Below, piece after piece: positions 36,257-64,000 of a stretch of 64,000 bases of DNA. The stretch spans positions 208 through 64,207 of the forward strand of contig SXMN01000316.1 of NCBI GenBank assembly GCA_005777315.1, read 5' to 3'. Below the pieces are notes generated by a model. It did not search any database. It had not been told where the DNA came from and worked only from the letters and a program-made list of their open reading frames with translations. Position 1 is the first letter of the stretch. Each line of letters opens with the position of its first letter. Made by a program: the position numbers and the translations under genes. Source of the DNA: Verrucomicrobiales bacterium. Lineage in GTDB: Bacteria > Verrucomicrobiota > Verrucomicrobiia > Limisphaerales > F1-12-MAGs170.

Positions 36257-36472
36257 ATGAGCACCGTGGCTGAAATCAAAACAGCATTCAAACGACTTCC
36301 TGAATCCGATCGCTCGAAACTCGCCGAATGGATTCGGGAAAGCGTGGAAGAACCGGACCCGAAACTGGAGGCGGCCCTGCGTCATTCGTTACGCAGTCCG
36401 CTGAAAAGATACAAACCCGGCCACTTCGCCGCGCTGGCATCGCGCAACCGCCGTCGCGCAAACGCCGCGTGA
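36257..36472 (+). CDS. putative antitoxin (addiction-module component-like) of a ParE pair
   Basis: 71 aa. MSTVAEIKTAFKRLPESDRSKLAEWIRESV resembles the small addiction module component family. Its stop overlaps the GTG start of the ParE-like gene (GTGA at 36469-36472). Confidence 0.55.
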   Translation: MSTVAEIKTAFKRLPESDRSKLAEWIRESVEEPDPKLEAALRHSLRSPLKRYKPGHFAALASRNRRRANAA

Positions 36473-36795
36473 AGGCGGTGGAAGTCTTCGTCCGTCACGA
36501 TGCCGAGTTGGACGCGTTCGGTTATTTCCAGCGCATCTTCGAACACAATTCGGACGCCGCACTCCGCTTTCTCAAAGCCGTGGATCAAACGGTGGAAAAT
36601 CTGGCGTTGCATCCGCTTAAAGGCAGACTGCGACATTTTCGCGGGCGCGATTTGAAGCACGTCCGCTCATGGCGGGTGGATGATTTTGAAGACTATCTGA
36701 TATTCTATCGGTTTACCGAGCCACATTTAGAAATCCTCCGGGTCAAGCATGGCGCAATGAATTTTCCTGCCGCGTTGCGGCGTTTGCCCGATTGA
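36469..36795 (+). CDS. parE: ParE/RelE-superfamily toxin
   Basis: VKAVEVFVRHDAELDAFGYFQRIFEHNSDAALRFLKAVDQTVENLALHPLKGRL...DYLIFYRFTEPHLEILRVKHGAMN is the typical ParE pattern. The GTG start is coupled to the upstream small ORF. Confidence 0.75.
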   Translation: MKAVEVFVRHDAELDAFGYFQRIFEHNSDAALRFLKAVDQTVENLALHPLKGRLRHFRGRDLKHVRSWRVDDFEDYLIFYRFTEPHLEILRVKHGAMNFPAALRRLPD

Positions 36796-49611: not shown

Positions 49612-50066
49612 ATGACAAACAACTCTCCTTTGCTCATCAAAGACAGTGTGAAAGACGGCGTGGACTTCGAGAGCAGCCCATCAAGACTCACGGAAATCCA
49701 GCAGTGGTCGAGTGGCTGGAGAGGGAGCAAGCGGACTGTTTCACCAGCACGGTTGTGATTGCTCAAATCGCCTACTGGATTCGCACCAAAGAAGGATGCG
49801 CCCGTCAACGGTTGCAGGACTGGCTGGCTGAATCTGTGGAAGCTCTTGAAGGAAGGATTCTGTCTTTCAACACAGCGACAGCTCACGTCTGGGCAAACCA
49901 AAAGATCCTGCCTGAAAAGAGCGGGAAGCTCATGTCGGTCGAGGACAGTTATATCGCCGCCACGGCCCGCCGTCACAACCTGACGATTGTGACCGGAAAC
50001 GATGCCGATTTCCGCCGGCCCGGATTGAAGGTCTTCAATCCATTCAAGGAACTGCCTGAGACTTGA
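49612..50066 (+). pseudogene. PIN-domain (VapC/FitB-like) toxin remnant, frame-disrupted, no antitoxin
   Basis: GTG-ORF 49704..50066 encodes the C-terminal two thirds of a PIN toxin (VVEWLERE...FTSTVVIAQIAYWI...SVEDSYIAATARRHNLTIVTGNDADF). The N-terminal part (ATG 49612, MTNNSPLLIKDSVKD...) is in another frame and lacks the usual LDTNV acidic motif. Confidence 0.55.
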
Positions 50067-50232
50067 ACAGTATTGATTCGCTTCGATGACACGACAGGCG
50101 GCCTTCGCATCAAGAGTTACTTGCGCGTCCGGGTCACGCAGGACGCGTGTGATTCGAATTCTTCAGGTTTTTGCCATTGACGGTCAGGAGGCGTTCGACG
50201 CAATCATCCGGCTGACCCGGCTAAACTCGTTT

Positions 50233-51054
50233 ATGAAACTTCTTAAATCCATTTCCGTTGCCACTGCGCTCGCCGCGATGGTGTTCGTTTCCGCCACTCC
50301 TGTTTCCGCCGCTGACGAACCACTGACCATCGGCATGCAAACCTGGACGCTCCGTAATCTCAACTTTGACCAGATGGTCGAGTTCGCCGTGAAGCACAAG
50401 ATCAAGTATCTGGAATTGATCCCGGCGCACATTGATCCGAAGTCGTCCAAGGAGGACTTGCAGAAGAAAAAGGACATCTTCGAGAAGAAGGGACTCGTGC
50501 CCTATACCTTCGGAGTCGCAGGCACTTCGCTGAACAAGGAGGAAAACCGCAAGCTCTTTGAATTCGCCAAGTTCATGGGCATGAAACTTATTGTCGTGGA
50601 GCCGAGCGACTTCAAAATTTTCGACAACCTGGAGGAGCTGGTCAAAGAGTACGACATCAAGATTGCCATTCACAACCACGGCATCAACTCGATGTACGGG
50701 AACCCGCTGGTGGTACGCGCCCTTCTCAAGCATCGTGATTCGCGGATCGGTGTGTGCCTGGATACCGGATGGATCGCGAGCGCGCGTTTCGATCCGTCCA
50801 AAGTGTTCAAGGAATACGAAGGCCGCGTTTATGACATCCACTTGAAGGATAAAAAGGTCAACTCAACCGAGACAGGCGATGTTGCCGTGGACACTTTCAT
50901 TGGGGACGGGAACGCCAGGCTCAAGGAATTTTTCAAGACGCTCAAGGATGCACGTTACACCGGCGTGCTGGCAATCGAGACGGACAACAACCTCAAGGAT
51001 CCGACTGAACACGTCACGAAGGCGCTGAAGTTCTACGCCGATAACAAGCCGTGA
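50233..51054 (+). CDS. Sec-signal sugar phosphate isomerase/epimerase (xylose isomerase-like TIM barrel)
   Basis: Signal MKLLKSISVATALAAMVFVSATPVSA at the internal Met. IAIHNHG and CLDTGW motifs, with the same fold as 14051..15004. Confidence 0.75.
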   Translation: MKLLKSISVATALAAMVFVSATPVSAADEPLTIGMQTWTLRNLNFDQMVEFAVKHKIKYLELIPAHIDPKSSKEDLQKKKDIFEKKGLVPYTFGVAGTSLNKEENRKLFEFAKFMGMKLIVVEPSDFKIFDNLEELVKEYDIKIAIHNHGINSMYGNPLVVRALLKHRDSRIGVCLDTGWIASARFDPSKVFKEYEGRVYDIHLKDKKVNSTETGDVAVDTFIGDGNARLKEFFKTLKDARYTGVLAIETDNNLKDPTEHVTKALKFYADNKP

Positions 51055-51118
51055 TTTTCTGACCAGGCAATCCACTTCTTCGCCTGAAGAGCTCCTGCCT
51101 CATCTCTCGGCGAATTTG

Positions 51119-54100
51119 TTACCGGATGTAAACAAACTCCGTGCTGTTGAGGAGCGCCCAGCACAGATTCTCCAAGCGTGTGGACGCCGCGAGTTTCTCC
51201 GCCTCCTTCAGCTCGTCAGGCGAAGGCTGGCGGGCCAGGCAATGGAGGTAGGCGCGCCGGATGGCTGATCGGGTGTTGTTTCCAGCTTCAGCGCGGACAC
51301 GGTCGGCAAGGCTCTCCGCCTGCCGATGCACGAAGGAGTTGTTCATCAAGCTCAATGCCTGGAGTGGCGTGGTGGTCGAGCCTCGGCGCGGTGTTTTTAC
51401 CGACGGGTCGGGACAATCGAATGTTTCAAGCATCGGATCCTTGCCCGAGTTGATGTTCATGCGATAAACGGTGCGACGATTATACTCCGGACCGGTTTTG
51501 TCGGTGGGAATGTAGAAGGTGGCGTTGAAACTTTTCGTGTCGAACGGACGGAAACTCGGACCGCCCGCCACAAAATTCAGTTCACCGCTGACGGCCAGCA
51601 TGGCGTCGCGCACCGCCTCGGCTGAAAGCCGCTGGGGGGTGAAGCGCCAGAGAAGTTGATTCTCGGCGTCTTTGCCGGCTGCGATCGTGTTATTCGCGGA
51701 TGACTGCCGATACGTGGCCGAGGTGACAATGAGCCGGTGCAATGCCTTCACGCTCCAGCCTTGCCGGATGAACTCGGCCGCCAGCCAGTCGAGCAACTCT
51801 GGATGTGTGGGTTTCGAACCGCTGGCCCCGAAGTCGTTGGCGGTGGCGACAAGTCCCGCACCGAAATGGTGCTGCCAGACACGATTGACCATGACCCGTG
51901 CCGGGATCGGATTGAGTGGATCCGCCAGCCAGTCCGCGAATTTCAGCCGCCGGTCCGCTTCAGGCGCATCCGGGGCGAGCCCGAAGCTGGCTGGCACATG
52001 TTCGATGGCGGCGAGGGCACCAGGATTGACGAGCTCTGCCGGCGAGCGAACGTCTCCGCGCTTCAGGCGATGTGTGGGCTCGGGTTGTTTCCGGATGCCC
52101 GCGTAGGAGACGGGCAATGTTGGCAGCATCTGGAGTTTCTCCCGCTCGGACGAAACGTTCGCCAACAGTGTCTGGTGGCGGTTTCTCTCGTCGTTCGAGA
52201 GTGAGGCGAGGATCTCCGCAGCCGAGACATGATGCGGCGATTTCACGCAGATCGCAGCGATTTCTTCTGCTGTCAACGCTTGGCCGTGGAGCGATGCTTC
52301 CTCGATCTCTCCAGTCAGAAATGGCTTCGCGCCGCCTGAGTGTCGTTTACCTAGGAGGATACGCGCTGCTCCCGCTTTGAAGGTCTGGACGGCTCCGCCT
52401 GGTTTGTAGGTGGAGCCGTATGGTTTCCCATTTCGGTAAAGCGTGATCGAGCCGTCAGCTTGATAGGTGACGGCAACATGCACTAACTCCCTCGCGCTTG
52501 CATGTTCTCCAGTAACGTTGAGATCCTTGGTTCGGGTGAATCCTTCGCTGCCCGCGGTCCACTTGCCGCGCTGCCGTTCTCCGAACACGATGGCGTCAAA
52601 CGGCACACCGCTTACTCCCTCGATCGAGATGACGCCGCCCCCGCCTTGATCGGTGGTAGTCAGCGAAACCCAGGCGGCCAAGGTCTTCTCGCGGACGTCC
52701 ATCTTGACTGGCTCTGTTTCGAGAAAGGCGTCTTTGCCATCGAGAATGAGGCGGCCACGTTCAATCCTGGCACCGCCGCGGAGTTCGCCGGTCATGCCGG
52801 TGATCTCATCGCGCGCGTCGCGTTCAAAGCGCCAGTGTGCGATTGGAGTGGGAAAAGGAAGGACGGGGTTTTGAGTTCTCAATGCTCCCGCTTTTTCGGT
52901 CGAGTTCTGTGAACCCACCTCACCCCGACCCTCTCCCCCCGTCCGACGGGCGGAGAGGGAGAGTGATCCACCGCGTTTTTTGTCGTCGTTGCTCAGATTG
53001 GGTTCCAGGTCTGTGACTTTTCCAGTGGTTGAAGTTTCGTCGGATTGTCGGAGGCGAACACGGTCGGCCTGCACTCTTGCCCTCGCATGAGCTTCGATCA
53101 TCGCAATCTCCTTCTGAAGCGAACCCAAGCTCTCCGTCAATTTCGCGACACGTTCCTCGCGCTCCTTGACCTCGGCGGGGGTGGCAATGACGCGCTCACC
53201 GTGACGAACTCCATCAAAGACAGCTTTTACCTGGTAGTACTCGTAATGCGGAATTGGATCGAACTTGTGCGAGTGGCAGCGGGCACAGTTCAAGGTCAGC
53301 CCAAGGAATGTCTGGCCCACGACGCTCAGGAGATCCTCCATCTCCTCTTCACGCGTTGTCATTCGTTGGGCCACGTTTGCCTGGCCATTTCCAGCCTGAT
53401 CCCATGCGCCACAAACCAGGAGGCTCGTTGCAACAATTCCGTCGGTGGTCACCGGCTCCATGACATCGCCGGCGATCTGTTCGCGCATGAACTCGTCGTA
53501 GGGTTTGTCCTGATTGAACGCGTTGATCACATAGTCGCGGTAGTGCCAGGCGTTTTCCCTCATGTGATCATATTCGAAGCCCTGGCTCTCCGTGTAACGC
53601 GCCACGTCCAACCAGTGGCGACCCCAGCGCTCGCCGTATTGCGGCAGTACAAGCAATCGATCGACAACCTTTTCATAAGCATGTCGTGACTTGTCTTTGA
53701 GAAATGCATCCAACTGGGCCGGCGTCGGTGGCAGGCCGGTCAGATCGAAACATAGCCTGCGCAACAGAGTGGCGCGATCCGCCTCCGGGGAGGGACTCAA
53801 TCCGGCCTTTTCCAACCCAGCTCGGATGAAGAGATCAATGGGATTGACGATTGGCGATTGGCGATTGGCAAGGTGCGGAAGTGGTGGGCGATTGATCGGC
53901 TGAAACGCCCAGTGGGTTCTGCCGGATGAACCTTCCTCTACAGGCTCCGACCAGACCGCACCCTGGTCAATCCATGCGCGAAGCAACTGGATCTGCTCCT
54001 TGCTCAAAGGCTCTCCTTGTTGAGGCATCCGGTGATCGGGGTTCGGGTCGGACACCAATTTAATCAACCGGCTGTCCATGCTCTTGCCCGCCACAAAAGC

Positions 54101-54358
54101 CGGACCAGAATCTCCACCGATCAAAGCGCCAGAACGCGAATCGAGTCGCAGGCCGGACTTCCGCTTCTCCGCCCCGTGGCACCTGACGCATCGTGATTCG
54201 AGGAGGGGGCGGATCTCGGTCGCAAAATCCACAGTTCTCCCTGGCGACTCCAGGGCCTCAGGAGCTCCGGTCGCCATTTCAAGATTGGCGGACACGACGA
54301 GAGCAAACAAGGCGATCAAGAAGCCGAACCGGCGGGGAATGTTTGGTTCATCCATCAT
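51119..54358 (-). CDS. PSCyt1 cytochrome c + DUF1549 + LamG-like + DUF1553 multidomain secreted protein
   Basis: FATEIRPLLESRCVRCHGAEKRKSGLRLDS is PSCyt1. LLRRLCFDLTGLPPTPAQLDAFLKD..YGERWGRHWLDVARY is DUF1549. CARCHSHKFDP is also present. The LamG-like block runs AHWRFE...LAAWVSL...VHVAVTY..ITLYRNGKPYG. NPIPARVMVNRVWQHHFG is DUF1553. Confidence 0.85.
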   Translation of the reverse strand: MMDEPNIPRRFGFLIALFALVVSANLEMATGAPEALESPGRTVDFATEIRPLLESRCVRCHGAEKRKSGLRLDSRSGALIGGDSGPAFVAGKSMDSRLIKLVSDPNPDHRMPQQGEPLSKEQIQLLRAWIDQGAVWSEPVEEGSSGRTHWAFQPINRPPLPHLANRQSPIVNPIDLFIRAGLEKAGLSPSPEADRATLLRRLCFDLTGLPPTPAQLDAFLKDKSRHAYEKVVDRLLVLPQYGERWGRHWLDVARYTESQGFEYDHMRENAWHYRDYVINAFNQDKPYDEFMREQIAGDVMEPVTTDGIVATSLLVCGAWDQAGNGQANVAQRMTTREEEMEDLLSVVGQTFLGLTLNCARCHSHKFDPIPHYEYYQVKAVFDGVRHGERVIATPAEVKEREERVAKLTESLGSLQKEIAMIEAHARARVQADRVRLRQSDETSTTGKVTDLEPNLSNDDKKRGGSLSLSARRTGGEGRGEVGSQNSTEKAGALRTQNPVLPFPTPIAHWRFERDARDEITGMTGELRGGARIERGRLILDGKDAFLETEPVKMDVREKTLAAWVSLTTTDQGGGGVISIEGVSGVPFDAIVFGERQRGKWTAGSEGFTRTKDLNVTGEHASARELVHVAVTYQADGSITLYRNGKPYGSTYKPGGAVQTFKAGAARILLGKRHSGGAKPFLTGEIEEASLHGQALTAEEIAAICVKSPHHVSAAEILASLSNDERNRHQTLLANVSSEREKLQMLPTLPVSYAGIRKQPEPTHRLKRGDVRSPAELVNPGALAAIEHVPASFGLAPDAPEADRRLKFADWLADPLNPIPARVMVNRVWQHHFGAGLVATANDFGASGSKPTHPELLDWLAAEFIRQGWSVKALHRLIVTSATYRQSSANNTIAAGKDAENQLLWRFTPQRLSAEAVRDAMLAVSGELNFVAGGPSFRPFDTKSFNATFYIPTDKTGPEYNRRTVYRMNINSGKDPMLETFDCPDPSVKTPRRGSTTTPLQALSLMNNSFVHRQAESLADRVRAEAGNNTRSAIRRAYLHCLARQPSPDELKEAEKLAASTRLENLCWALLNSTEFVYIR

Positions 54359-54560
54359 GGACCATGGTGCCGGGATCGCTTAAGGCCGTATATCAAAACC
54401 AGCGAGGTCATCAGGCGTAGAAGAGTATCAGGCATAAAAAAGTGTTGCATGGCTGGCAACTGGAGAAACTAGCCGCCAATCCTTCTGAGCCCAATCAAAT
54501 TTTTGATTTGGAAACGAGCTTTACGCGGATGACCAGCAGGAGTAACAAGGGGCTGTTCTT

Positions 54561-55319
54561 ATGAAACCCTCCAAACTCCTCAGGGCATTCACACTCATCG
54601 AACTGCTCGTTGTGATTGCCATCATCGCTATCCTGGCGGGCATGTTGCTCCCGGCACTCTCACGAGCGAAGTTCCGCGCAAAAGTTGTGAACTGCACCTC
54701 GAATTACCGCCAGTGGGGAATCGCGGTGAACTTGTATGCGGTGGACGATACCCGTGGCCGGCTCCCAGCCTTCAAAATGCCGCGAACAGGTTTGAATCCT
54801 TGGGACGTCTCGCTCGACATGGCGCCAAAGCTCGAGCCCTACGGCTTGACGGTGCCAATGTGGTACTGCCCAACCCGGCCCTGGGATTTCGCGGACGCGC
54901 AAAAGTGGTTTTCGACTCAGAAGAAGGGCGAGCAACTGCGCACAATCCAGGACTTGAACAAGTATTTCGTCCGGCAGTACGCCAACTTCGCCATCATCTG
55001 GCATTGCTGGTGGGTGCCTCGTCAGCTTGATGACGGCACCATGTTTCCGACACCCACCACTTCCGGCACGTTCACTCGCACCAAGGATGGGTGGCCCACA
55101 CGTCTGGAGGATCCAGTGGCCTCGCTCCAGCCGGTGATTACTGATCTATGCCTGGCATCAGGCACCAGAACCACCAATGTCGCCAGCGCGCAAGGAGGGC
55201 ATCCCATCGGAAACAAGCCTCAAAGCGTGAACCTCGCCTTCGCCGACGGCCATGTTGAATCGCGCAACTTCAAGCAGATTCAGTGGCAGCAGTCGGGCAA
55301 CTGGACCACATTCTATTGA
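54561..55319 (+). CDS. prepilin-type N-terminal cleavage/methylation domain protein, H-X9-DG family
   Basis: [51 protein letters not shown] and C-terminal [14 protein letters not shown]. Confidence 0.85.
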
Positions 55320-55336
55320 ACTGCCAGCGGGGTTCA

Positions 55337-56104
55337 TCAGGAGAAAAGTCCGGTCCAGACTGGATTCGTCAGTGACATGCGGACCACGTCCTGCCGCCGT
55401 CCTTGAATGACAGCCTCCTCAAAGAACACGCCCTCAAGCGCAAATCCAAAACGGCTGTTCAGATTGAGGTTGCGGATGTTGATGTCCATGGAGTGCAGAA
55501 ACACCTTGTAAAATTTTCGGATGAGGAAGGTGTGGAAGAGGAAGAGGAACGTCGCGCGTTTCCCGATGCCTTTGCCGCGAGCGGAGGGATTCCCAACGAG
55601 CTTGCGCATCTCCAGCCGGGCGGAATGGACATCGATGTTTTCCGCTCCGATGATTCCGGAAGGTTCTCCTTCGTGAAGGATGCAAAAGTAATCCCGCCCC
55701 GCTGAAGTGACGTATTTCCGCAGATCCGCCTCTTTCTCCGGAAATTGCGGATAGAAACTGTCACTCGCCGCCGGCACCTTGAGCCAGTCCAACAGAATTG
55801 GAGTCCAGCGCAGGTCGAAAGGAACAAGGCTCACCTGTTGCAGCGAGAGCTGTTTCGAGGCGTTCCAATCGTCACGCACGTCCTTTATGCCAAACAGGCG
55901 GTTGTAGTGTTCAGGATCGGGACCGGCTTGTTGAGTGCCTTGGAGCACATTGTCCAAAAGATGACCCGCGACAGTCAGGACTTCAGCATGATTGACACCG
56001 TACTTGGTCAACTCATTAAAAAAGCCCTTTGAGACCAACTTCAACATTTGTTCGTGCTGCTTCCTTACTGGTGAAGGTGCCTCCTCGTTCTGAGTCATGG
56101 TCAT
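55337..56104 (-). CDS. GNAT N-acetyltransferase with about 100-aa N-terminal extension
   Basis: The C-terminal GNAT core is LEMRKLVGNPSARGKGIGKRATFLFLFHTF...VFLHSMDINIRNLNLNSRFGFALEG (motif A Q/RxxGxG/A). The N-terminal helical extension is of unknown family. Confidence 0.7.
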   Translation of the reverse strand: MTMTQNEEAPSPVRKQHEQMLKLVSKGFFNELTKYGVNHAEVLTVAGHLLDNVLQGTQQAGPDPEHYNRLFGIKDVRDDWNASKQLSLQQVSLVPFDLRWTPILLDWLKVPAASDSFYPQFPEKEADLRKYVTSAGRDYFCILHEGEPSGIIGAENIDVHSARLEMRKLVGNPSARGKGIGKRATFLFLFHTFLIRKFYKVFLHSMDINIRNLNLNSRFGFALEGVFFEEAVIQGRRQDVVRMSLTNPVWTGLFS

Positions 56105-56220
56105 GAGTACAGGTTGAACCCGGCGGCTCCAGTGTCAATAGTTGCAATGTCCTGTTACTATCCCGATCCTTCTCTCAAAGCCTGTGAAACGGGCTGGCGT
56201 TCTGGAACACATTTGTCATT

Positions 56221-56580
56221 GTGGAGCGAGAAAATCATCGACCAATGTCCATTGGACAGATGTTCGAGCTGGTTTCAAAATTGCTGAAATTCGTTGTCAG
56301 AGGTGACGTTGATGTTAAGTTCTCTCGCGACTCAGCGTTGCTTGTTAGTTCTATGCCTAGCGACAATGACATTAATGCCAATGATTTGGTAAGGAACTCA
56401 TCGCTTTACCGTGAGTTTCAAGCTGAACGGGAAGAGATCCTGAAGCACAAGTGGATCGAATCAGAGAAGGCCGGATATGACATCGGTTTCGAGCAGGCTC
56501 TGACCGAGTGGATCATCAAGCACCGGTCCAAGTGGCGCAAAGCCAGGCAACAGTCCCAAGCGCAGCCAGCCGACGGTTGA
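56221..56580 (+). CDS. hypothetical small protein with conserved-looking KHKWIESEKAGYDIG motif
   Basis: 119-aa GTG ORF. The C-terminal EREEILKHKWIESEKAGYDIGFEQALTEWIIKHRSKWRKARQ looks like a conserved helical motif that I cannot assign to a family with confidence. Confidence 0.4.
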   Translation: MERENHRPMSIGQMFELVSKLLKFVVRGDVDVKFSRDSALLVSSMPSDNDINANDLVRNSSLYREFQAEREEILKHKWIESEKAGYDIGFEQALTEWIIKHRSKWRKARQQSQAQPADG

Positions 56581-56874
56581 ACTGTAGTCTTCCTGCTCTT
56601 CATCCTCGGCACCTATTTGCAATTCCGCAGCTGAACGGGTCGAATTGCTCCAGAAAAGCCCCTCAAAGTTCGCCGCGAAAGGGCAGGGAGTTTTAGAGAT
56701 GTCTGAAAATTGCGTGAGGTCCTGCGGCGAGGGATTTTGGGCGGGCCAAGGCGGCGAGGCCGGAGCATCCCCGCAGCGGGCTGTGAGGGCCGAGCCAACG
56801 CAGGCCACGGCCAAAAGACCCGCCGCCCGAAGGGGTTTCGAGGAAAAGTCCGTCTTGCGGATGAGCCTGCTCAT
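56461..56874 (-). CDS. questionable lipoprotein-like ORF
   Basis: 137-aa ORF with LLAVACVGSALTARCG. Its ATG overlaps (ATGA) the stop of the read-through frame of the upstream small ORF. However, it overlaps 56221..56580 antisense by 120 nt and is compositionally odd. Confidence 0.25.
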   Translation of the reverse strand: MSRLIRKTDFSSKPLRAAGLLAVACVGSALTARCGDAPASPPWPAQNPSPQDLTQFSDISKTPCPFAANFEGLFWSNSTRSAAELQIGAEDEEQEDYSSTVGWLRLGLLPGFAPLGPVLDDPLGQSLLETDVISGLL

Positions 56875-56930
56875 TCACCGCTCTTCTCACGGAGAACCTG
56901 CGCAGCCACGTCTTCGAGATCCTGACGCGA

Positions 56931-57143
56931 TTACGGCGTGAACGGCCCTTTCGCCACTTTCAATAACTCCGCCGCCAGCTCCGGGCTGTCCACTTCCAAG
57001 TCCAATGCTCCACCCTCCCTCACAGCAGCCTCCAATGTCAGACGTCTCTTGCCGTCGGTCAGAACAACCGTGTCGCCTTGATGAGTCTCCGCAATGAGCT
57101 GGCTCATTTGTTCTTTGGCCACATGGACCATCAACGTCTTCAT
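56931..57143 (-). CDS. small antitoxin-like protein (possibly truncated by an in-frame TAA)
   Basis: 70 aa. MKTLMVHVAKEQMSQLIAETHQGDTVVLTDGKRRLTLEA has the shape of Phd/AbrB-type antitoxin N-termini. No recognisable toxin partner. Confidence 0.35.
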   Translation of the reverse strand: MKTLMVHVAKEQMSQLIAETHQGDTVVLTDGKRRLTLEAAVREGGALDLEVDSPELAAELLKVAKGPFTP

Positions 57144-57283
57144 GAAGGCAACTTAGCCGGTGCAAAGTTTCTCAACAAGTCTGGGTCTATTGGTGACTAA
57201 CCCGTTCCGACCCAAACTAGAGCTGCGCCGGGTAGAAACGGGTAGAGAAACTACAACCCAGACGATTGATTCGGTCAGGATTT

Positions 57284-57874
57284 CTAGATTTCCTGTTTTC
57301 CAGTGGCACGCGACTCTCGCTCCTCGAACCATCGCCGCCGATAGTCTGCGGAGAATGCAGCGACGAGCGACACGGCAATAACCAAGAAAAGGAACAGGCT
57401 GAACTGCGCTTTGCCTGCCCCAGAATCAACCTCAAAGGAGTTTGCTACTACACTTCCGAGCGCAGTAGCCCATGCAACGCAATAAAGCAGATGAACCTGA
57501 GACGCCCATTCATCGAGATGCGGTTGAATGCCCTTCTTGTCTTGACGTCTCTTCCATCGAGCTTCGTCACGGATAGCCTCACCTTCGAGCGGCTTAAATG
57601 GATTGAAATGGCGCGCACCGATGCGGCTCCTCGGTCGTAGTCCAAGTGCGAGCCAAAGCGCAGCACGACTAAGCGTCGGATATAGAAGAGAGCGATGGAC
57701 CGCATAAATAATGCTGCCGGCAAGTAGCGCAACAAAGAATAAAGCTGCTGAACTGTCTGTGGCTGGCAGTCCATGTGCGCCTCTGCTGTAGCGATAAGCG
57801 TAAACAAACACGCCTCCACAGAAGAAGTATCGGAGCAATTCAGCGAGGCTAAGTGTTTCGAGCGTCTTCACCAC
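57284..57874 (-). CDS. orphan 4-TM membrane protein
   Basis: 196 aa with helices FFCGGVFVYAY, ALFFVALLAGSIIYAV, VHLLYCVAWATALGSVV and FSLFLFLVIAVSLVAAF. It sits in a visibly more AT-rich stretch. No family recognised. Confidence 0.5.
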   Translation of the reverse strand: MVKTLETLSLAELLRYFFCGGVFVYAYRYSRGAHGLPATDSSAALFFVALLAGSIIYAVHRSLLYPTLSRAALWLALGLRPRSRIGARHFNPFKPLEGEAIRDEARWKRRQDKKGIQPHLDEWASQVHLLYCVAWATALGSVVANSFEVDSGAGKAQFSLFLFLVIAVSLVAAFSADYRRRWFEERESRATGKQEI

Positions 57875-58175
57875 AAATACTGACGGGCTATCACAAAGTG
57901 AAATTGTTCAACCTAGAAAAAGCACTTGAACTGAACAGGAGCGAGCAGAGCAAGCAGAGGCCGAGAGACTTGGGGCTATATTCTGGTGCGAGCAGCCTTC
58001 ACCCAGCGGGCGAGCCTGCGGCGCGACGGTGACTCGATTCAACTTGTTCATTCTCTGCTTCCTCCGCGTCCTCCTGTTCAACTCAACTGCCGAATTTAGG
58101 TTCAATGATTTATCGGCAATTTCATTTTCACTCCGTCCAGACTTCTCTCTGAACCCTTCTCCAGCGAAGATTCCC

Positions 58176-59519
58176 TCAGTTGTAATGGAACACGAACCGG
58201 ACTTCGCGAAAATCCTTCCCAACAATCCGGCGCAACTCCGGGGGCCATGCCCCGTAGGGAGCTGGATCCTGAACGGCGCGCTGGCAGATCAGACCGAGGA
58301 CCGAAGCAACTTCACTCTCCTGTTCCCGCATGTTCGTGATACGTCCGTCTGATGTTATGTGAAATTCCAGAACCACCTTTCCGATCCCGCCCCGCGAGAT
58401 GTCGCGGTCCTCAAGCAGATCGAACCACCTCTTTTGGATGTTTGCCAGGATTGCCGCATGGTAAGCGCCAAATTCAATCGAACGCACATCAAGATTCGAT
58501 TCAATGCTAAATCGCCGGACGCCTCCTGTCTGCCGCACCTTCTCTCCAAGGTTGGCGCTTCGGCTGTCGGGCAGTGGTATCACTGCGGCGAGGCGCCGCG
58601 GCCTGGTTTTAACAGTCGCTGCTGGGTCGGCCTCAGCGTAGAGCAAAGCGGCTTTTTGCCGCTTTTTCTTCTCCGCTTCTTCGGCTGCCGATCGAGCTTG
58701 AGCGCGGGACAGTGCTTCCTTTTCAGCCTCTGCGCTTGCGAACTTGGCACGAGTTCGCGCTTCCTCCACCCATTTAACTAGCTCCGGGTCGGGCTGCATT
58801 TTCTCGATTGAGCGACCAGTCGAAACCCCGTTCGTGCCCATTCTCAGTGCATTGAACAGACTCGCACTCCCTTTCAGTTGATTGTCATTTGCTAACAGCA
58901 TCTGGTCTCCGAGACTGTCAGTGTTCACTACCCAGAAATGTTGCTCGTCACGGTTGTCTGACGTGGTCGTAGTTTCCGCCAAGATCCATGATTTGCCGGG
59001 AGCACGAACGGAAAACTTTCCATCCGCATCCGTCTTGGCATCAGCCAGAGGCAAGGAAGCAAACAATCGATTGGCAGGGCCGTCCTTTTGGAGGAGCGGT
59101 ATCCACAACTTGCTTGATCTGTCTTCAATCTCTGCGGCGATTCTGCGAATTTCTGGAACTGAATAGTCGCTTCGCAGCCGGTTATGCTGAAGGATCAGGT
59201 CTCCTGACTCGGTTGTGCTCTGGTCGGCCTGTTGCACTGGATGATCGCCGAATTGCAGCACAGCTAACTCCTGGCTAAACGACTTTAGCAACGCCCAATT
59301 GGGTTCGGCCGCAGCAACTGCCACAGCGTACTCGTTTCGCAATTCATTTGCTAACTGTTGCAGAATATCGTCCCGAACCACGTGAATTGGAACCAAGCCA
59401 AGCTTGAGATTTTCCTGCTTCTCAGTGACCAAGAACACCTGCCCCTTGAATTCGCGTTCGCGCTGACAGCCCAAAAGCAGAACGACAAACGACGCGATGA
59501 CCGTAAAGTGCAAGCGCAT
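58176..59519 (-). CDS. lipoprotein with coiled-coil region and TonB C-terminal-like domain
   Basis: Lipobox MRLHFTVIASFVVLLLGC at the internal Met. Charged coiled coil AEAEKEALSRAQARSAAEEAEKKKRQKAA. The C-terminus YHAAILANIQKRWFDLL...GKVVLEFHITSDGRITN...GAWPPEL...VRFVFHY is TonB_C-like. Confidence 0.6.
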   Translation of the reverse strand: MRLHFTVIASFVVLLLGCQREREFKGQVFLVTEKQENLKLGLVPIHVVRDDILQQLANELRNEYAVAVAAAEPNWALLKSFSQELAVLQFGDHPVQQADQSTTESGDLILQHNRLRSDYSVPEIRRIAAEIEDRSSKLWIPLLQKDGPANRLFASLPLADAKTDADGKFSVRAPGKSWILAETTTTSDNRDEQHFWVVNTDSLGDQMLLANDNQLKGSASLFNALRMGTNGVSTGRSIEKMQPDPELVKWVEEARTRAKFASAEAEKEALSRAQARSAAEEAEKKKRQKAALLYAEADPAATVKTRPRRLAAVIPLPDSRSANLGEKVRQTGGVRRFSIESNLDVRSIEFGAYHAAILANIQKRWFDLLEDRDISRGGIGKVVLEFHITSDGRITNMREQESEVASVLGLICQRAVQDPAPYGAWPPELRRIVGKDFREVRFVFHYN

Positions 59520-59571
59520 GTGAAGACACATAGCTCATACTGGGGAGCTTTTCAATTACCGTGAAAGGGTC

Positions 59572-59775
59572 GTGAAGAGGCCGGTCAACGTTTCGCTCCC
59601 ATTTGTCGGTTCTCCCGCTCATGCCCCAAGCAGCGAGTGGAGTGCCGCCCGATGAAATCTGGAAACCCTGAAGATTGAACCAACCCTTCTCCTCCCGCCG
59701 AGTTTGTTGATTGGAGCTCTGACGCAAAGCCTTGAAGGATTTTTCAGTTTTCCCTGCGCTTTGGCGTTCAATTCT
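59572..59775 (+). repeat. TA-array repeat R1 (~200 bp)
   Basis: Shares ordered blocks with R2-R5: CCGGTCAAY, CATTTGYYGGTTCTCCC, GAGTGGAGTGCCGCC, GAAATCTGGAAACCCTGAAG, TTGTTGATTGGA..CTGACGCAAAGCC and TTGGCGTTCAATTC. Confidence 0.8.
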
Positions 59776-59851
59776 TTGCTCCGTCGCACTTCGACACTCC
59801 ATCCGCGTCCGGTGGTTGCGCGGATTGGTTTCTTAAAGTAAAAATTGAAAG

Positions 59852-60118
59852 ATGACGATCACACTGACAGCCGAGCAGGAAAAATTCATCGCGGAACAAG
59901 TGGGCAGCGGCCATTACCACTCCACTGCGGATGTCATCGCACAAAGCCTCGGCATGTTGCGGGCACAGGAGGAATTCGTCCGCTCAAACGCAGCCGAATT
60001 GCGCGAGAAAATCGCCAGCGGCATGGAACAAATCCGTCGCGGCGAGGTCGTGGACGGGAAAACAGCCATCAAAAATCTCCGAGAGAAGCTGGGCCAGCGC
60101 GAACGCAGCGCGCGATGA
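59852..60118 (+). CDS. parD: ParD-type (RHH/COG3609) antitoxin
   Basis: MTITLTAEQEKFIAEQVGSGHYHSTADVIAQSLGMLRAQEEF...LREKIASGMEQIRRGEVVDG is the canonical ParD pattern. Its stop overlaps the ParE ATG (ATGA at 60115-60118). Confidence 0.8.
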   Translation: MTITLTAEQEKFIAEQVGSGHYHSTADVIAQSLGMLRAQEEFVRSNAAELREKIASGMEQIRRGEVVDGKTAIKNLREKLGQRERSAR

Positions 60119-60408
60119 GTTCGTATCGCTATTCAGCGGATGCCAACGCTGACATCGAGGAGATAGTCTTCTACATTTTCGACCTCAACCCGGTCGCCGC
60201 GCATCATTTTCTCACTGCGCTGGAAGAAGCTTGTGAATTGCTGGCCGCGCATCCTCTCATGGGGAGGCCACGCCCGGGATTTGGCGAAGGCCTGCGTTCG
60301 TTTTCTATTGGGAACTATTTGATCTTCTACATCCCGGCACCACATGGGATTGACGTTTCTCGCATCATCTATGGCGGTCGTGATTTGCCTAAAATGTTCA
60401 GCCGGTGA
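60115..60408 (+). CDS. parE: ParE toxin
   Basis: MSSYRYSADANADIEEIVFYIFDLNPVAAHHFLTALEEACELLAAHPLMGRPR...NYLIFYIPAPHGIDVSRIIYGGRDL is the canonical ParE pattern. Confidence 0.85.
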   Translation: MSSYRYSADANADIEEIVFYIFDLNPVAAHHFLTALEEACELLAAHPLMGRPRPGFGEGLRSFSIGNYLIFYIPAPHGIDVSRIIYGGRDLPKMFSR

Positions 60409-60431
60409 AAATTCCACCCTTGAAGGGGTCC

Positions 60432-60655
60432 TGAAGGGGCCGGTCAATAGCTTTGATAACTACGCCCTCATTTGTTGGTTCTCCCCCTCTTGAGGCAAGC
60501 TTCGAGTGGAGTGCCCCTCGATGGAATCTGGAATCCCTGAACACTAAGCCTCCTGGTCTCCGGGTTTATTTGATTGGAATTCTGACGCCAAGCTGCGAAG
60601 AGCGTCCCAGTTGTCCTGCGAGTCCGCACTTTGGAGATTTCGCGGTGAAATAAAT
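60432..60655 (+). repeat. TA-array repeat R2
   Basis: Starts 24 nt after the ParE stop. It has the same ordered blocks as R1 and its 3' end, TTGGAGATTTCGCGGTGAAATAA, is shared with R5. Confidence 0.8.
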
Positions 60656-60667
60656 GAGTCACGACCG

Positions 60668-60822
60668 CCCTCATCCCGGCCTTCTCCCCAAGGAGAAGGA
60701 GAACCGTTCGCCGCCTCGCTCGAAAACCAGCGACTGTGCCGACCAAACGGCCACCCCCATGACCAGAGACGGACCATTGCTGTTCCTTCTCCCTGGGGGG
60801 AGAAGGTCAGGATGAGGGCGAG
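60668..60822. repeat. 155-bp hairpin/MITE-like element with 24-bp terminal inverted repeats, each arm also a local hairpin
   Basis: CGCCCTCATCCCGGCCTTCTCCCC (60668-60691) versus GGGGAGAAGGTCAGGATGAGGGCG (60799-60822). Local hairpins pair CCTTCTCC with GGAGAAGG at 60682-60701 and 60787-60808. Confidence 0.7.
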
Positions 60823-60860
60823 TGTTGAAACCGTTTTGAATCGTCTTAACTTTTTCCTGC

Positions 60861-61067
60861 CGGTCAATAGTTCCGAACTCTTAACCGCATTTGCTCGTTC
60901 CCCGCTTGTGCCTTGGGCTTCAAACCGAATGCCGCATGATGAAATCTGGAAACCCTGAAGTCTGAACGAATTCTCCTCCTGCCCTCCGGGTTCTTATTGC
61001 TTGGACTTCTGATGACGAGCCGAAGAGAGATTACCAGCTATTTCAGAGCCTTGGCGTTGAATTCCTC
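60861..61067 (+). repeat. TA-array repeat R3
   Basis: GCCGGTCAATAGTT...GATGAAATCTGGAAACCCTGAAG...CTGCCCTCCGGGTT...CCTTGGCGTTGAATTCC. It ends 20 nt before the MazF stop at 61087. Confidence 0.8.
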
Positions 61068-61086
61068 GCCGCGCCCTTTTACAGCG

Positions 61087-61398
61087 TCAAAGTTGCAGCC
61101 AGTTTCGCAATCGTTGGTCGAGAGTCTGACAGTCAGCGGCAGTGAGCGTGCCGACGATCTTTACGACCAATCTTTCTTCCACTGTGGAGACTTGAGCCTT
61201 GATGCCGGATGGGACGTTCAATCCAGCCGCGCGCCATTCCTTGACTGGAAAGTCCGTGTTGGGAAGCACCGAGGAAATGGGAACGAGAAACAGATCCGCT
61301 CCATTGCGGCCAATGACTATGGCAGGGCGTACCTTGCGGCTGGTCAAGTCCGTGAACGGAATCGGCAGGAGAACGACGTCATTTCTTGAGCAGTTCAT
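61087..61398 (-). CDS. MazF/PemK-family toxin
   Basis: RNDVVLLPIPFTDLTSRKVRPAIVIGRNGADLFLVPISS...GLNVPSGIKAQVSTVEERLVVKIVGTLTAADCQTLDQRL is the PemK pattern. The internal Met (MNCSRND) is preferred. Confidence 0.8.
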   Translation of the reverse strand: MNCSRNDVVLLPIPFTDLTSRKVRPAIVIGRNGADLFLVPISSVLPNTDFPVKEWRAAGLNVPSGIKAQVSTVEERLVVKIVGTLTAADCQTLDQRLRNWLQL

Positions 61399-61582
61399 TG
61401 AAGACGTCATCCGCTTGGTTGTCCCAAACTTTCGTCAAAGATTCCTCGGAGAGTTTGAGCCACGCCTCGCGCGCCGGGTCGGATTCGATGGTCACGCGCA
61501 CGTGGGATCTTTCAGGAAGCGACAGCGGTCGCGGCAACATGAGTTTTCCGTCCTCGTAGATGGCGTCAATTGTCGTTGTCAT
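61379..61582 (-). CDS. DUF104 (AF2212-like) antitoxin
   Basis: MTTTIDAIYEDGKLMLPRPLSLPERSHVRVTIE is the characteristic DUF104 N-terminus. It overlaps the downstream MazF gene by about 20 nt. Confidence 0.7.
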   Translation of the reverse strand: MTTTIDAIYEDGKLMLPRPLSLPERSHVRVTIESDPAREAWLKLSEESLTKVWDNQADDVFNELLKK

Positions 61583-61591
61583 GGCCTAAAA

Positions 61592-61876
61592 TTATCTTTC
61601 CCAACTTGGTTTGCAAGGCGCGTCTCCCGTCATTCCCGTGACTTCTTGGCGCTTGGGGCGAATGAAGCTGTCCACCGCCATACGCCCACGCGTGAAGTCG
61701 GTGTTCGCGAGTGGAACGGAGTAACCATCGGAACGCGCCCGGCTCGTAATCTGACAAAGCACCAAGTCATCGCCCGCAAGATCAGCAACGACCAGCGCGG
61801 GACGGCGTTTGCCGGATTGGAGGTTGGTTTGCGGAAAAGGGAGAACGACGACTTCGCCGACTACAGGCTTGCCCAT
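61592..61876 (-). CDS. MazF/PemK-like toxin (C-terminus atypical)
   Basis: MGKPVVGEVVVLPFPQTNLQSGKRRPALVVADLAGDDLVLCQITSRARSDGYSVPL...DSFIRPKR is the PemK pattern. The last ~20 aa do not look like the family, whereas an alternative frame does. Confidence 0.65.
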   Translation of the reverse strand: MGKPVVGEVVVLPFPQTNLQSGKRRPALVVADLAGDDLVLCQITSRARSDGYSVPLANTDFTRGRMAVDSFIRPKRQEVTGMTGDAPCKPSWER

Positions 61877-62064
61877 GCAGTGTCCTCCACGGGCGTGTTC
61901 CAATCCTTCGCGAGCGCGGATTTGCTCAACAGCAGGCCGTTGAAAGACTCGTCCTCGTTCTTAAGTCGCAGGAAGCGCGCGAAGTCATAGACCTCATAGA
62001 CCTCGCGCTGCAATGGTTCGAGCATAGCGGCTACTTCTTTTTTGATCAACTCGCATGTGCTCAC
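61861..62064 (-). CDS. DUF2281-like antitoxin
   Basis: (V)STCELIKKEVAAMLEPLQREVYEVYDFARFLRLKNE...ALAKDWNTPVEDTAWASL. The EV.DF..FL motif and the WxxPEED..W tail are typical. GTG start at 62064 (alternative ATG 62025). It overlaps the toxin start by 16 nt. Confidence 0.6.
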   Translation of the reverse strand: MSTCELIKKEVAAMLEPLQREVYEVYDFARFLRLKNEDESFNGLLLSKSALAKDWNTPVEDTAWASL

Positions 62065-62120
62065 GGCGGCAACGTATCGAGTTGACCGGGGTCTGGTAAG
62101 ACTGCTGCCGTTCAGGAAGT

Positions 62121-62330
62121 GTGAAAGTTGGTCAGTAATTTCGACCTTCGGCCGCATTGGTTGGACCGCCCGCTGCGGGCCCCATGCTTCGAGTGGAATG
62201 CCGCCATATCGAATCTGGCATCTCTGAAGCCTGAGCGAAATCATTTCCTGCCCTCCGGGTTAATTGATTGGAATTTTGACGCAAAGCCGCGAAGAGCTTT
62301 CCAGTTTTCCCCGCGGCTCGTTGCTTGATT
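62121..62330 (+). repeat. TA-array repeat R4
   Basis: GTTGGTCAGTAAT...CGAGTGGAATGCCGCC...GAATCTGGCATCTCTGAAG...CTGCCCTCCGGGTTAATTGATTGGAATTTTGACGCAAAGCCGCGAAGAGCTTTCCAGTTTTCC. Confidence 0.8.
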
Positions 62331-62376
62331 CAAAACCCCGCTTGCCAGCGTATCGCAACGCCGCTAATTTTTGTCC

Positions 62377-62562
62377 ATGAGCGCGGTAGAAATCCTTGCC
62401 GAACTGCCCAAGCTAACCAGCGAGGAGCGTTCCGTGGTCCGCCGGCGGCTGCGCGAGCTTGACGAGCGGGACGAACTGCAATTCCTCCACGAGTCCGCCG
62501 ACGCGATGTTCCAAGACCTGGACATACAGGATGCCAAGAATGCCCGCCGCGAAACCCGGTGA
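62377..62562 (+). CDS. small antitoxin (addiction-module component-like)
   Basis: MSAVEILAELPKLTSEERSVVRRRLRELDERDE resembles the small helical addiction module component family. It overlaps the downstream toxin gene. Confidence 0.6.
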   Translation: MSAVEILAELPKLTSEERSVVRRRLRELDERDELQFLHESADAMFQDLDIQDAKNARRETR

Positions 62563-62857
62563 AATCTGGATCGTGGACCTGGGCATGGCTGCGAAAGTCC
62601 GCCCCTGCCTGATTCTGACTCCGCAACCGCGTGGTGATGACTTGGACACCTACACCGTTGTCGCCCACACCACTGTCAGTCGCGGCAACCGCTGGGAAGT
62701 TTCAATTCCAAAGCCTTACCTGGATGCGGAAGGCGCGTTTGACGTGCAACGAATCGCCACGGTTGCGAGCGTAAAGCTGGAACGTAAACTTGGTGAGCTC
62801 ACTCGCACGGAATTGGATTCGATCCTCGACCGTCTTGCGGAACGGTTCGGGATCTGA
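62531..62857 (+). CDS. MazF/PemK-family toxin
   Basis: KPGEIWIVDLGMAAKVRPCLILTPQP...VVAHTT...FDVQRIATVASVKLERKLGELTRTELDSILDRL is the PemK pattern. The start is ATG 62531 or 62540. Confidence 0.75.
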   Translation: MPRMPAAKPGEIWIVDLGMAAKVRPCLILTPQPRGDDLDTYTVVAHTTVSRGNRWEVSIPKPYLDAEGAFDVQRIATVASVKLERKLGELTRTELDSILDRLAERFGI

Positions 62858-63070
62858 AGCCCACCCGCAGTTCCACCAAACTTTTTGGTTCTCCCGCTCG
62901 TGCCGCAGGAATTGAGCGCCGTGCCACTCAATGGAATCTGGAATCCCTGAAGAGTGAGCCAATGCTTCTTCTGCCCTCCGAGCTTGTTGATTGAAATTCT
63001 GACGCAACGCCACGAAGAGCTTTCCAGTTGTCCTGCGAGTTCGCCCCTTGGAGATATTGCGGTGAAATAA
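62853..63070 (+). repeat. TA-array repeat R5
   Basis: Begins at the MazF stop. GGTTCTCCCGCTCGTGCC...AATGGAATCTGGAATCCCTGAAG...CTGCCCTCCGAGCTTGTTGATTGAAATTCTGACGCAACGCC..GAAGAGCTTTCCAGTTGTCCTGCGAG..TTGGAGATATTGCGGTGAAATAA. Confidence 0.8.
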
Positions 63071-63270
63071 CCGAAAAACCACTTACACAGACTACTTTAC
63101 AAAACCCCGTGACAGGATGAGCCGCCGCCTAAATCAAATCATCCGCCTGGCAGCCGGTCCCAGCACGTCACTTTAGAACAGCCCTGGTGACTGCGCGTCC
63201 TTGCCATTTCTCACTGGCGGACTTCGGCTCGTTTGCTAGCTTCCGCACTGTTTCCACCAATCGTCACATT

Positions 63271-64000
63271 ATGAAAACGAAACTTTCTCCTTCGCGTCGC
63301 ACCACCACCTCCCAAAAGAAGAATGGCAACGGATCCTGGATTTCCGGCACGCGTCGGATGTTGATCAACGGCAAATGGGTTCTTGCCAGCTCGGGCGAAA
63401 CTTTTTCCACATTCAATCCGGCCACGGCTGAGGTGATTTGCCAGGTTGCGGCGGGCGACAAGGCAGACATCGATGGTGCGGTGAAAGCAGCGCGTGCCGC
63501 CTTCGAGGATGGTCCCTGGCGCCGCATGACGCCATCGGAACGTGGCAAGCTTATCTGGAAACTGGCCGACCTTCTCGAACGTCAACTCGAAGAGTTCGCT
63601 CAACTTGAATCCCTCGACAATGGCAAGCCGCTCGCGGTCGCCCGTGTCGCGGATGTGCCGCTCGCCGTGGACCTGTTCCGCTACATGGCAGGATGGGCAA
63701 CGAAGGTGGTGGGGCACACCATTCCGATATCCGTGCCTTATGCGCCTGGCGCAAAGTTCTTCGCCTACACTCAACGCGAACCAATTGGTGTCGTCGGCCA
63801 GATCATCCCTTGGAATTTCCCGCTTTTGATGGCCGCATGGAAATTGGGACCGGCGCTGGCAACCGGATGCACGGTTGTCTTGAAGCCTGCGGAACAAACA
63901 CCGCTCTCTGCGCTCCGGCTTGGGGAATTGATTCAGGAGGCTGGCTTTCCGGATGGCGTGGTGAACATCGTCACCGGATTTGGTGAAACGGCCGGCGCTG
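63271..64000 (+). CDS. NAD(P)-dependent aldehyde dehydrogenase, 5' partial (runs off window)
   Basis: Absent from the ORF track because there is no stop in the window. My translation from ATG 63271 is [10 protein letters not shown]...[56 protein letters not shown]...[46 protein letters not shown], the canonical ALDH N-half. Confidence 0.85.

Follow-up and report, generated by a model that had tools for sequence, protein, structure and literature searches.

How do toxin-antitoxin (TA) modules come to stand in a row, each set off from the next by a copy of the same non-coding DNA? This question is raised by one end of a stretch of 64,000 nucleotides (nt) from Verrucomicrobiales bacterium (GTDB lineage Bacteria; Verrucomicrobiota; Verrucomicrobiia; Limisphaerales; F1-12-MAGs170; NCBI GenBank assembly GCA_005777315.1, contig SXMN01000316.1, positions 208 to 64,207 of the forward strand), hereafter called the window. 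A direct-repeat family, designated R, is present there in five copies, all on the plus strand and within ~59.56-63.07 kb, with TA modules between the copies. R is non-coding and appears to be restricted to its lineage. Our preferred reading, held tentatively and at a probability of roughly 0.4, is that R is hitch-hiking joint or flank DNA that travels with TA modules, and that the modules were added by homology-driven recombination at R.

Five direct repeats alternate with toxin-antitoxin modules

A repeat search of the window recovered R as a family with five members of 99 nt that share 61-77% identity with the reference copy, along with sub-families of 65-135 nt. When the copies were aligned with MAFFT, the mean column identity was 68% over ~270 columns. 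A two-block pattern taken from the invariant columns matched the window exactly five times, compared with 0.00 matches expected from 100 dinucleotide shuffles, and block A of R, allowing up to three mismatches, matched five times compared with 0.09 expected. A preliminary description of this locus had reported five same-orientation copies, and the repeat search, the alignment, and the comparison of the pattern with shuffles all bear this out, coordinates included. An R profile found no further copies, either in the rest of the window (60 kb) or in 8 kb past its right end that a longer ENA contig covers. The array region was 100% identical in three independent assemblies (NCBI GCA_005801925.1 SXGS01742258.1, ENA ERZ27257032, and Logan SRR8894381), indicating that the array is not an assembly artefact.

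Between consecutive copies lie, in order, a ParD/ParE pair (+), a hairpin element, two PemK pairs (-), and an antitoxin/MazF pair (+); from R1 to R5, a diverged copy of a single homology segment stands before every module. The orientation of R is constant, whereas that of the modules goes either way, and R orientation is unrelated to that of the adjacent genes. The copies are spaced 418-1269 nt apart and co-oriented, as are the sites of an integron cluster, for which at least two co-oriented sites less than 4 kb apart are required. Around the MazF unit, at most 30 nt of DNA are unexplained. The gene content earlier assigned to the intervals was confirmed by Pfam for ParD/ParE, the PemK genes, and antitoxin/MazF. 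The R2-R3 spacer, which had been called a gene-less hairpin element, indeed holds only a 24-nt inverted repeat with 92% complementarity. The proposed cassette-array-like layout with almost no spare DNA also stands, in that co-oriented repeats bound compact, self-promoted TA units.

Anatomy of the repeat copies

Core limits were set by pairwise identity along the alignment, and all positions are window coordinates. R consists of a core of ~160 nt, over which the copies are 66-77% identical, and of more variable arms. On its 5' side the core carries an arm of 28-46 nt and on its 3' side a tail of ~40-46 nt; the exceptions are R5, which has no recognizable 5' arm, and R4, whose tail is short. R1 (59558-59797, +; 5' arm 59558-59593, core 59594-59751, tail 59752-59797) is immediately upstream of the start of a 451-amino-acid (aa) gene on the opposite strand and also upstream of the ParDE unit. 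R2 (60417-60653, +; 5' arm 60417-60462, core 60463-60614, tail 60615-60653, with GCGGTGAAATAA at its end) is the most complete "long form" and begins 9 nt past the ParE stop codon. The tail of R3 (60854-61087, +; core 60882-61041), which contains CCTTGGCGTTGAATTC, abuts the stop codon of a minus-strand PemK gene. R4 (62108-62322, +) has its core at 62149-62308, and R5 (62858-63070, +; core 62873-63031, tail 63032-63070, of the R2 tail type) begins at the MazF stop codon. The 3' module of R reads GACGCAAAG...AAGAGCTYTCCAGTTTTCCCTGCG...CTTGGCGTT, and its 24-nt 3'-end motif AAGAGCTYTCCAGTTTTCCCTGCG is located at 59735-59758 in R1 and at 62292-62315 in R4. By eye, stems appear possible around this motif in some copies, at inconsistent positions. 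The shared, ordered sequence blocks listed in the preliminary description hold as a consensus only: R5 lacks CCGGTCAAY, R3 diverges in GAGTGGAGTGCC, and GGCGTTSAAT occurs in R1 and R3 alone.

The copies are mosaic. A sharp change of similarity was observed at alignment columns ~229-240, corresponding to the 3' core edge, in 7 of the 10 pairs. The 3' tails fall into types (R2/R5, 86% identical; R1/R3, 58%; R4 alone) that cut across core similarity, and a 5' arm is common to R1 and R2 and missing from R5. The core relationships are star-like, with no neighbour effect (identity 0.717 for adjacent and 0.727 for non-adjacent copies); together with the low mutual identity of the three PemK toxins (16-37%), this argues against tandem duplication in situ. 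The invariant fraction of the core, 0.46, equals the expectation under uniform decay of ~14% per copy, and clustering of invariant columns was marginal (p = 0.055). A purine-rich GGAGGGCAGGAG-like motif is present on the minus strand of all R copies, and the frames downstream of it differ between copies.

A discrete MazF unit and R-like sequence beside it in other genomes

The module between R4 and R5 is a self-contained MazF unit (62325-62862, +) with its own promoter, antitoxin, and toxin. Its sigma-70-like promoter is at 62342-62370 (+; -35 TTGCCA at 62342-62347, 17 nt, -10 TAATTT at 62365-62370), followed by the antitoxin gene (62377-62562, +) and the PemK/MazF toxin gene (62540-62857, +; Pfam PF02452, E = 7e-12). 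The unit shows 80-85% nucleotide identity to units in five contigs (L005, L007, L011, L062, and L063; L011 is JGI 3300086394 and L062 is ENA ERZ25039456), the neighbours of which are all different. Homology covers ~535 bp from promoter to toxin stop, and its limits, 62325-62340 and 62850-62862, correspond to the R4 end and the R5 start. The occurrence of the unit in five unrelated contexts indicates that modules do relocate. Since the homology stops where R4 ends and R5 starts and the unit carries its own promoter, R is separate DNA between self-sufficient units. The MazF protein has 388 relatives at E ≤ 1e-10; among the matches listed (120, P0051-P0170), identity was 73-88% and most were on contigs shorter than 5 kb. 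Such units may often sit in repeat-rich regions that are hard to assemble.

Fragments of R were found beside the MazF unit elsewhere. With up to four mismatches, AAGAGCTYTCCAGTTTTCCCTGCG matched R1 and R4 and, in two other verrucomicrobial contigs, two sites in L011 and one in L062, all on the strand of the MazF gene, compared with 0.0 matches expected by chance in 1.36 Mb. The sequence CTTGGCGTTNAA follows the 3' motif in R1, R3, and two L011 sites. In addition, the 300 nt upstream of the MazF unit were R-like in forward orientation in L005, L062, and L007. The L005 score (22.5) was higher than that of all 1,324 real-sequence control windows (Gumbel p = 1.3e-5), and the values for L062 (p = 0.016) and L007 (p = 0.05) gave, with L005, a Fisher's combined p of 1e-4. 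The controls, namely the reverse strand and the downstream flanks, gave p = 0.5, 0.46, and 0.06. Decayed R upstream of the MazF unit is, by itself, only suggestive, given the heavy tail of the controls. The hairpin element between R2 and R3 also has homologous copies at L062 1607-1918 and 2801-2881, which flank the MazF unit of that contig. Between the MazF unit of L062 and the R-like 3' motif, a 20-nt unit (TCTGATTTCGGCGCGACGTG-like) is repeated four times in tandem (1995-2075).

Footprint of insertion at a related locus

In L011 (1600-6700), a heme operon (hemA-hemC / cobA-hemD) is split by a block of ~4.9 kb. This inserted block contains the MazF unit, a GH97 gene, and a 196-aa open reading frame (ORF), and parts of the operon are duplicated in it. 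The hemC 3' end is duplicated just upstream of the MazF unit (133 nt, 89% identity), where it still translates to ...EAAELGEQIAMELK*, and the cobA 5' end is duplicated just downstream of the unit (83 nt, 82%). A further pair of 76 nt (83%) surrounds the GH97 gene. Modules bracketed in this manner by diverged duplicates of native flanks bear the mark of homology-driven insertion; no such duplicates would result from site-specific recombination at a common site. The R 3' module directly follows the stop codon of hemC at the edge of the block, and the tail of R1 aligns across this hemC border at 38 of 53 positions (p < 0.002). Hairpin elements adjoin the R 3' motif in L011 at 5464-5545, 6271-6352, and 6400-6501.

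Tests of R as a recombination site, RNA, or gene

The preliminary description had compared the locus with an integron or a CALIN (a cluster of attC sites lacking an integrase) and had itself objected that the repeats are too long, could not be folded into the imperfect palindrome of attC, and are not accompanied by intI. The objections all stand, and the canonical form of the proposal was rejected. No strict R''(RYYYAAC)...R'(GTTRRRY) pair was present on any copy; a regular-expression scan for box pairs over 59400-63300 on both strands returned one pair, 61924-62166, which does not coincide with any R. The 5' GGTCAAY of R matches 6 of 7 box positions and is missing in R5, and GTTGAAT is found only in R3. 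When the five copies were folded as RNA or single-stranded DNA (ssDNA) on both strands, they were no better than shuffles (z = -1.6 to +1.5). With DNA parameters, the ssDNA folds of both strands gave z = -1.6 to +1.3 and no attC hairpin, whereas an attC-aadA7 control had z = -4.9 and -0.30 kcal/nt. No intI gene, as a complete integron would carry, was found next to the array.

Other types of recombination site were examined in R. The best 11-6-11 complementarity for a dif-like core was 6-8 of 11, compared with a shuffle mean of 7.0-7.2. No conserved dyad with arms of 9-13 nt and spacers of 6-8 nt, no internal repeated binding motifs, and no res-like site were found in R, and no terminal inverted repeats join the ends of any copy, as they would in a transposable element of the miniature inverted-repeat type (MITE). 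Recombinase domains were absent from the ~50 ORFs of the window scanned against Pfam, consistent with the earlier statement that the window contains no recombinase, and from the precomputed Pfam matches for the 8 kb beyond. The fallback suggestion, a new family of recombination sites to which TA genes accrue, fits the findings, but no sign of a dedicated site-specific core was seen, R having no dyad, and the duplicated flanks in L011 point instead to homology-driven joining.

The idea of a small RNA or operator module gained no support: R has no stable fold, unrelated structures on the two strands obtain equal covariation, the orientation of R is independent of that of the adjacent genes, and the TA promoters lie outside R. 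An Rfam 15 covariance scan of the whole window gave no match at the gathering score, and at E up to 10 over the array it gave chance matches only, all in the hairpin spacer. Covariation on the plus strand was above that of shuffles, but an unrelated minus-strand structure scored equally; we treated the covariation on both strands as a fitting artefact of structures fitted to five sequences. A long-range pairing CCGGUCAAY/RUUGAUUGG, with G-U pairs, is possible on the plus strand of R1-R4. R shows no excess of promoters or terminators. A transfer RNA (tRNA) or transfer-messenger RNA (tmRNA) origin was dismissed, no such genes being present, and as a candidate C-rich tract of the Rho-utilisation type R showed mild skew only.

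R was also examined for coding capacity. As a decayed protein gene it was rejected: the R1 minus-strand ORF was without relatives among 1.84 billion representative proteins, ten peptides spanning R had no Pfam match at E up to 1, and the substitutions showed no 3-nt periodicity. Nor did R qualify as a small toxic peptide of a type I TA system (LDR, QUAD/Sib-Ibs type), no ORF being conserved in frame. The best candidate, an ORF of 21-25 aa with a TTG start, is open in all copies; its frame shifts between copies, no Shine-Dalgarno sequence precedes it, and identity is lower at the amino-acid (68%) than at the nucleotide level (80%). The earlier view of R as non-coding is thus supported both by the lack of an ORF conserved in frame and by the lack of periodicity. 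A 16-mer, CCCGGTGAAATCTGGA, at the start of MazF (62555-62570, encoding PGEIW) matches block A of R1 (59648-59663) at 15 of 16 positions. A nucleotide alignment of R as a decayed 5' mazF fragment recovered only this 16-mer, and R translated in all six frames scored inside the range of the shuffled null against a profile of 120 MazF homologues; the match probably arose by chance.

How the array may have formed

Under the joint-DNA reading, incoming DNA with one R and one module would recombine with a resident R, most likely via ordinary homology and not a dedicated integrase, either by a Campbell-type single crossover or by an exchange of flanks after DNA uptake. The outcome would be a chain of R-module-R-module in which R keeps one orientation, modules take either, and the R copies are hybrids. 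Recombination between two R copies that deleted a module would kill the cell via the toxin of that module, and TA modules may for this reason survive between the repeats, by analogy with the TA cassettes of chromosomal integrons. This reading accounts for the single orientation of R with genes either way, the mosaic copies and their star-like divergence, the tight packing of modules, the R remnants by the MazF unit elsewhere, and the absence from R of a hairpin, a dyad, an ORF, and an RNA signal.

Several observations weigh against it. No complete copy of R was found in 185,579 species-representative genomes, JGI metagenomes, and viral contigs, in which matches to patterns from blocks A and B were limited to those expected by chance for the seed length; exact-pattern scans of this kind catch just a few per cent of copies this diverged. 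Blastn of plasmids and phages likewise gave chance matches of seed length and no complete copy. Homologous proteins bear names that place the organism in Verrucomicrobiota and mark it as Pedosphaera/Limisphaerales-like. In a conserved enzyme, identity to the closest relative sampled is only ~85%, which indicates poor sampling of the lineage. The R remnants in other genomes are short and weak, and the control windows have a heavy tail (maximum 21.5, compared with 22.5 for the best remnant). Within the window, a ParE-family gene (~36328-36795) and a PIN (VapC-type) gene (~49704-50066) have no R near them. R may be under no selection at all, and we do not claim purifying selection on its blocks. 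The evidence comes from one array in one strain, with no polymorphism of module content seen: every contig carrying the array proteins was 100% identical to the window, and no strain variants were observed. Lastly, the R copies, now 66-77% identical, are too diverged for efficient RecA recombination, which implies that the events are old or took place between more similar partners.

Among the alternatives, R might be a dispersed intergenic mosaic repeat, comparable to bacterial interspersed mosaic elements (BIME), neisserial intergenic mosaic elements (NIME), or enterobacterial repetitive intergenic consensus (ERIC)-like sequences, that gathers with hairpin MITEs in gene-poor junctions and has no role in module movement, at most a local one such as transcript insulation. 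We regard this as unlikely, though a serious contender: R is modular, with arms, a core, and a 3' module common to other genomes, the 3' module stands beside MITE-like hairpin elements in all three genomes, the invariant fraction of the core fits uniform decay, and R has no recombinase-type core. However, all five copies lie within 3.5 kb and none in the other ~68 kb examined of this genome, their orientation is single and every copy stands exactly at a module border, the remnants turn up on the upstream side of the MazF unit in particular, and on its strand, and R is neither palindromic nor bounded by terminal inverted repeats. It is more doubtful that R is the site of an undescribed, non-attC cassette system in Verrucomicrobiota, in which an unlinked recombinase would capture and excise circles of R plus module. 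With its 160-240 nt, R is about as long as the complex sites attP, res, and cer, and the CALIN-like layout, the concentration of pairwise breakpoints at one core edge, and the presence of R with the MazF unit in other genomes would all suit such a system. Against this stand the missing dyad core (11-6-11 complementarity no better than shuffles), hairpin, and internal repeated binding motif, the lack of a recombinase within 72 kb, and the L011 junctions, which are duplicated gene ends and share no common site.

An array made in place, by tandem duplication of one segment of R plus TA module followed by divergence and gene replacement, seems improbable. Direct repeats would be its natural product, and star-like, uniform divergence fits one burst of copying with neutral decay; but similarity is no higher between neighbouring copies than between distant ones, the toxins come from different families or are just 16-37% identical, the MazF unit is nearer to the units of other genomes (80-85%) than the R copies are to one another, and the whole region is missing in relatives. 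There is still less reason to consider R an RNA (a small RNA, leader, or element of a 3' untranslated region) or a small peptide regulating the neighbouring TA genes. The possible CCGGUCAAY/RUUGAUUGG pairing in R1-R4, covariation above shuffles, and the 21-25-aa TTG ORF in all copies are offset by fold z values of ~0 on both strands, by the equal covariation of a minus-strand structure, by the absence of Rfam matches to E 10 and of any promoter or terminator excess, by the changing frame, missing Shine-Dalgarno sequence, and lower amino-acid than nucleotide identity (68% and 80%) of the ORF, by the lack of 3-nt periodicity in the substitutions, and by an orientation of R that is unrelated to the adjacent genes. 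We give hardly any credence to R as a long atypical attC in a true CALIN left by an integron. Integrons occur in Verrucomicrobia (PMC4889954), the sites are less than 4 kb apart in one orientation, and TA cassettes are typical of chromosomal integrons; yet no R carries a box pair, the bottom strand is unfolded compared with the control at z = -4.9, R5 is without the 5' motif, R2, R4, and R5 are without the 3' motif (GGCGTTSAAT), and intI is lacking.

Should the joint-DNA reading be true, addiction modules could assemble into arrays like those of integrons with neither integrase nor attC: repeated recombination at hitch-hiking non-coding DNA would suffice, and which modules survive between the repeats would depend on TA addiction. 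This would help explain the pile-up of TA modules in the islands of many genomes. The MazF unit, with fairly intact R here and decayed R elsewhere, provides a testable pair of states for one module, and it bears on how mobile cassettes first gain recombination sequences. If R were instead a site-specific recombination site, MazF units with and without intact R would be snapshots of cassette birth and decay, and if R were an intergenic repeat it would merely be a lineage-specific one. The anatomy is unusual and the predictions are testable, but this is one locus in one uncultured strain.

Comparison with known systems

The locus resembles integron arrays and CALIN in its co-oriented sites that alternate with compact units, its self-promoted TA pairs (some of them inverted), the absence of an integrase nearby, and its hybrid or mosaic sites. 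R lacks the imperfect palindrome, the R/L boxes, and the ssDNA fold of CALIN sites, and it is 200-240 nt long, with copies that are only 66-77% identical; unlike in integron arrays, the evidence here points to homology-based and not IntI-type joining. In the orphan toxin/immunity arrays found downstream of cdi and rhs loci, each module is likewise preceded by a diverged homology segment and consists of a toxin with its protector, and these arrays are thought to grow via horizontal transfer and homologous recombination at the repeated segment. Their segment is a fragment of the conserved coding part of the toxin, in contrast to the non-coding R, and their toxins are secreted, whereas the present modules are type II TA operons.

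Acinetobacter dif modules are similarly small and discrete, are often TA systems placed between repeated sites, and depend on a recombinase encoded elsewhere. The pdif sites, however, are 28-bp XerC/XerD dyads in alternating orientation on plasmids, whereas R has no dyad and is direct, ~8 times longer, and chromosomal. The BIME/boxC of E. coli and the NIME of Neisseria share with R a non-coding, modular, and lineage-specific nature and the company of intergenic hairpin elements. Those elements consist of palindromic units and are spread genome-wide, whereas R is not palindromic and is found, as far as seen, only at the module borders of one island. The logic of the array is closest to that of orphan cdi/rhs arrays; it works like a CALIN but fails to show the features that define attC. 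The array can be described as a repeat-bounded accretion of addiction modules, which the non-coding nature of R sets apart from cdi/rhs.

Toxin-antitoxin genes between the repeats

The ParD antitoxin (59852-60118, +; Pfam PF03693, E = 3e-5) and ParE toxin (60115-60408, +; Pfam PF05016, E = 5e-18) genes follow R1. A candidate ParDE promoter (59816-59844, +; TTGCGC, 17 nt, TAAAAA) may be read in the sequence outside the R1 core; a strict promoter scan did not report it. The gene-less hairpin element between R2 and R3 is MITE/boxC-like (60653-60837, no strand assigned; inverted-repeat arms 60666-60689 and 60797-60820). Its arms, GGGGAGAAGG..GGATGAGGGCG, are boxC-like and belong to a dispersed MITE-like family, and a weak match to the element was seen at window 52917-52938.

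The two PemK-type TA pairs occupy 61087-62040 (-). The first comprises a PemK gene (61087-61410, -; Pfam PF02452) and an AF2212-like antitoxin gene (61379-61582, -; Pfam PF01954), and the second comprises a PemK gene (61592-61903, -; Pfam PF02452) and a putative antitoxin gene (61861-~62025, -) with a weak DUF2281 match (E = 0.24). On the minus strand of R4, GGAGG followed by ATG opens a 127-aa ORF (61861-62244, -) that runs in frame into this putative antitoxin. The window contains at least six TA toxins, four in the array plus the ParE-family and PIN genes.

Flanks of the array

On the left, the array is adjoined by the gene for the 451-aa protein (58176-59531, -), which has a TonB-like C-terminus and homologues that are named TonB or have PF03544; a synteny search via this protein returned TonB paralogues only. 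On the right lies an aldehyde dehydrogenase gene (63271-64000, +; Pfam PF00171, E = 2e-71) that runs off the window and whose product is 507 aa in L003. This gene (63271 onward) and AP_endonuc_2 (50086-51054) are ~12 kb apart here (51055-63270), compared with a gap of ~40 nt in the relatives L058-L061, and in L057 a restriction-modification pair lies between the two. The array sits in a 12-kb lineage-specific insertion, and the AP_endonuc_2/aldehyde dehydrogenase junction has the look of an accessory-gene hot spot. No R was found in this region of the relatives, and no att-like direct repeats flank the 12-kb insertion. With a G+C content of 0.552, the array falls at the lower end of what is seen in the backbone.

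The PIN (VapC-type) gene lies just upstream of AP_endonuc_2. An inverted repeat of 59 nt, 73% complementary and with 93 nt between its arms (57901-57959/58053-58111), is located just downstream of the 451-aa gene, and the Logan contig L004 (5.1 kb) starts inside it, at window 58051.

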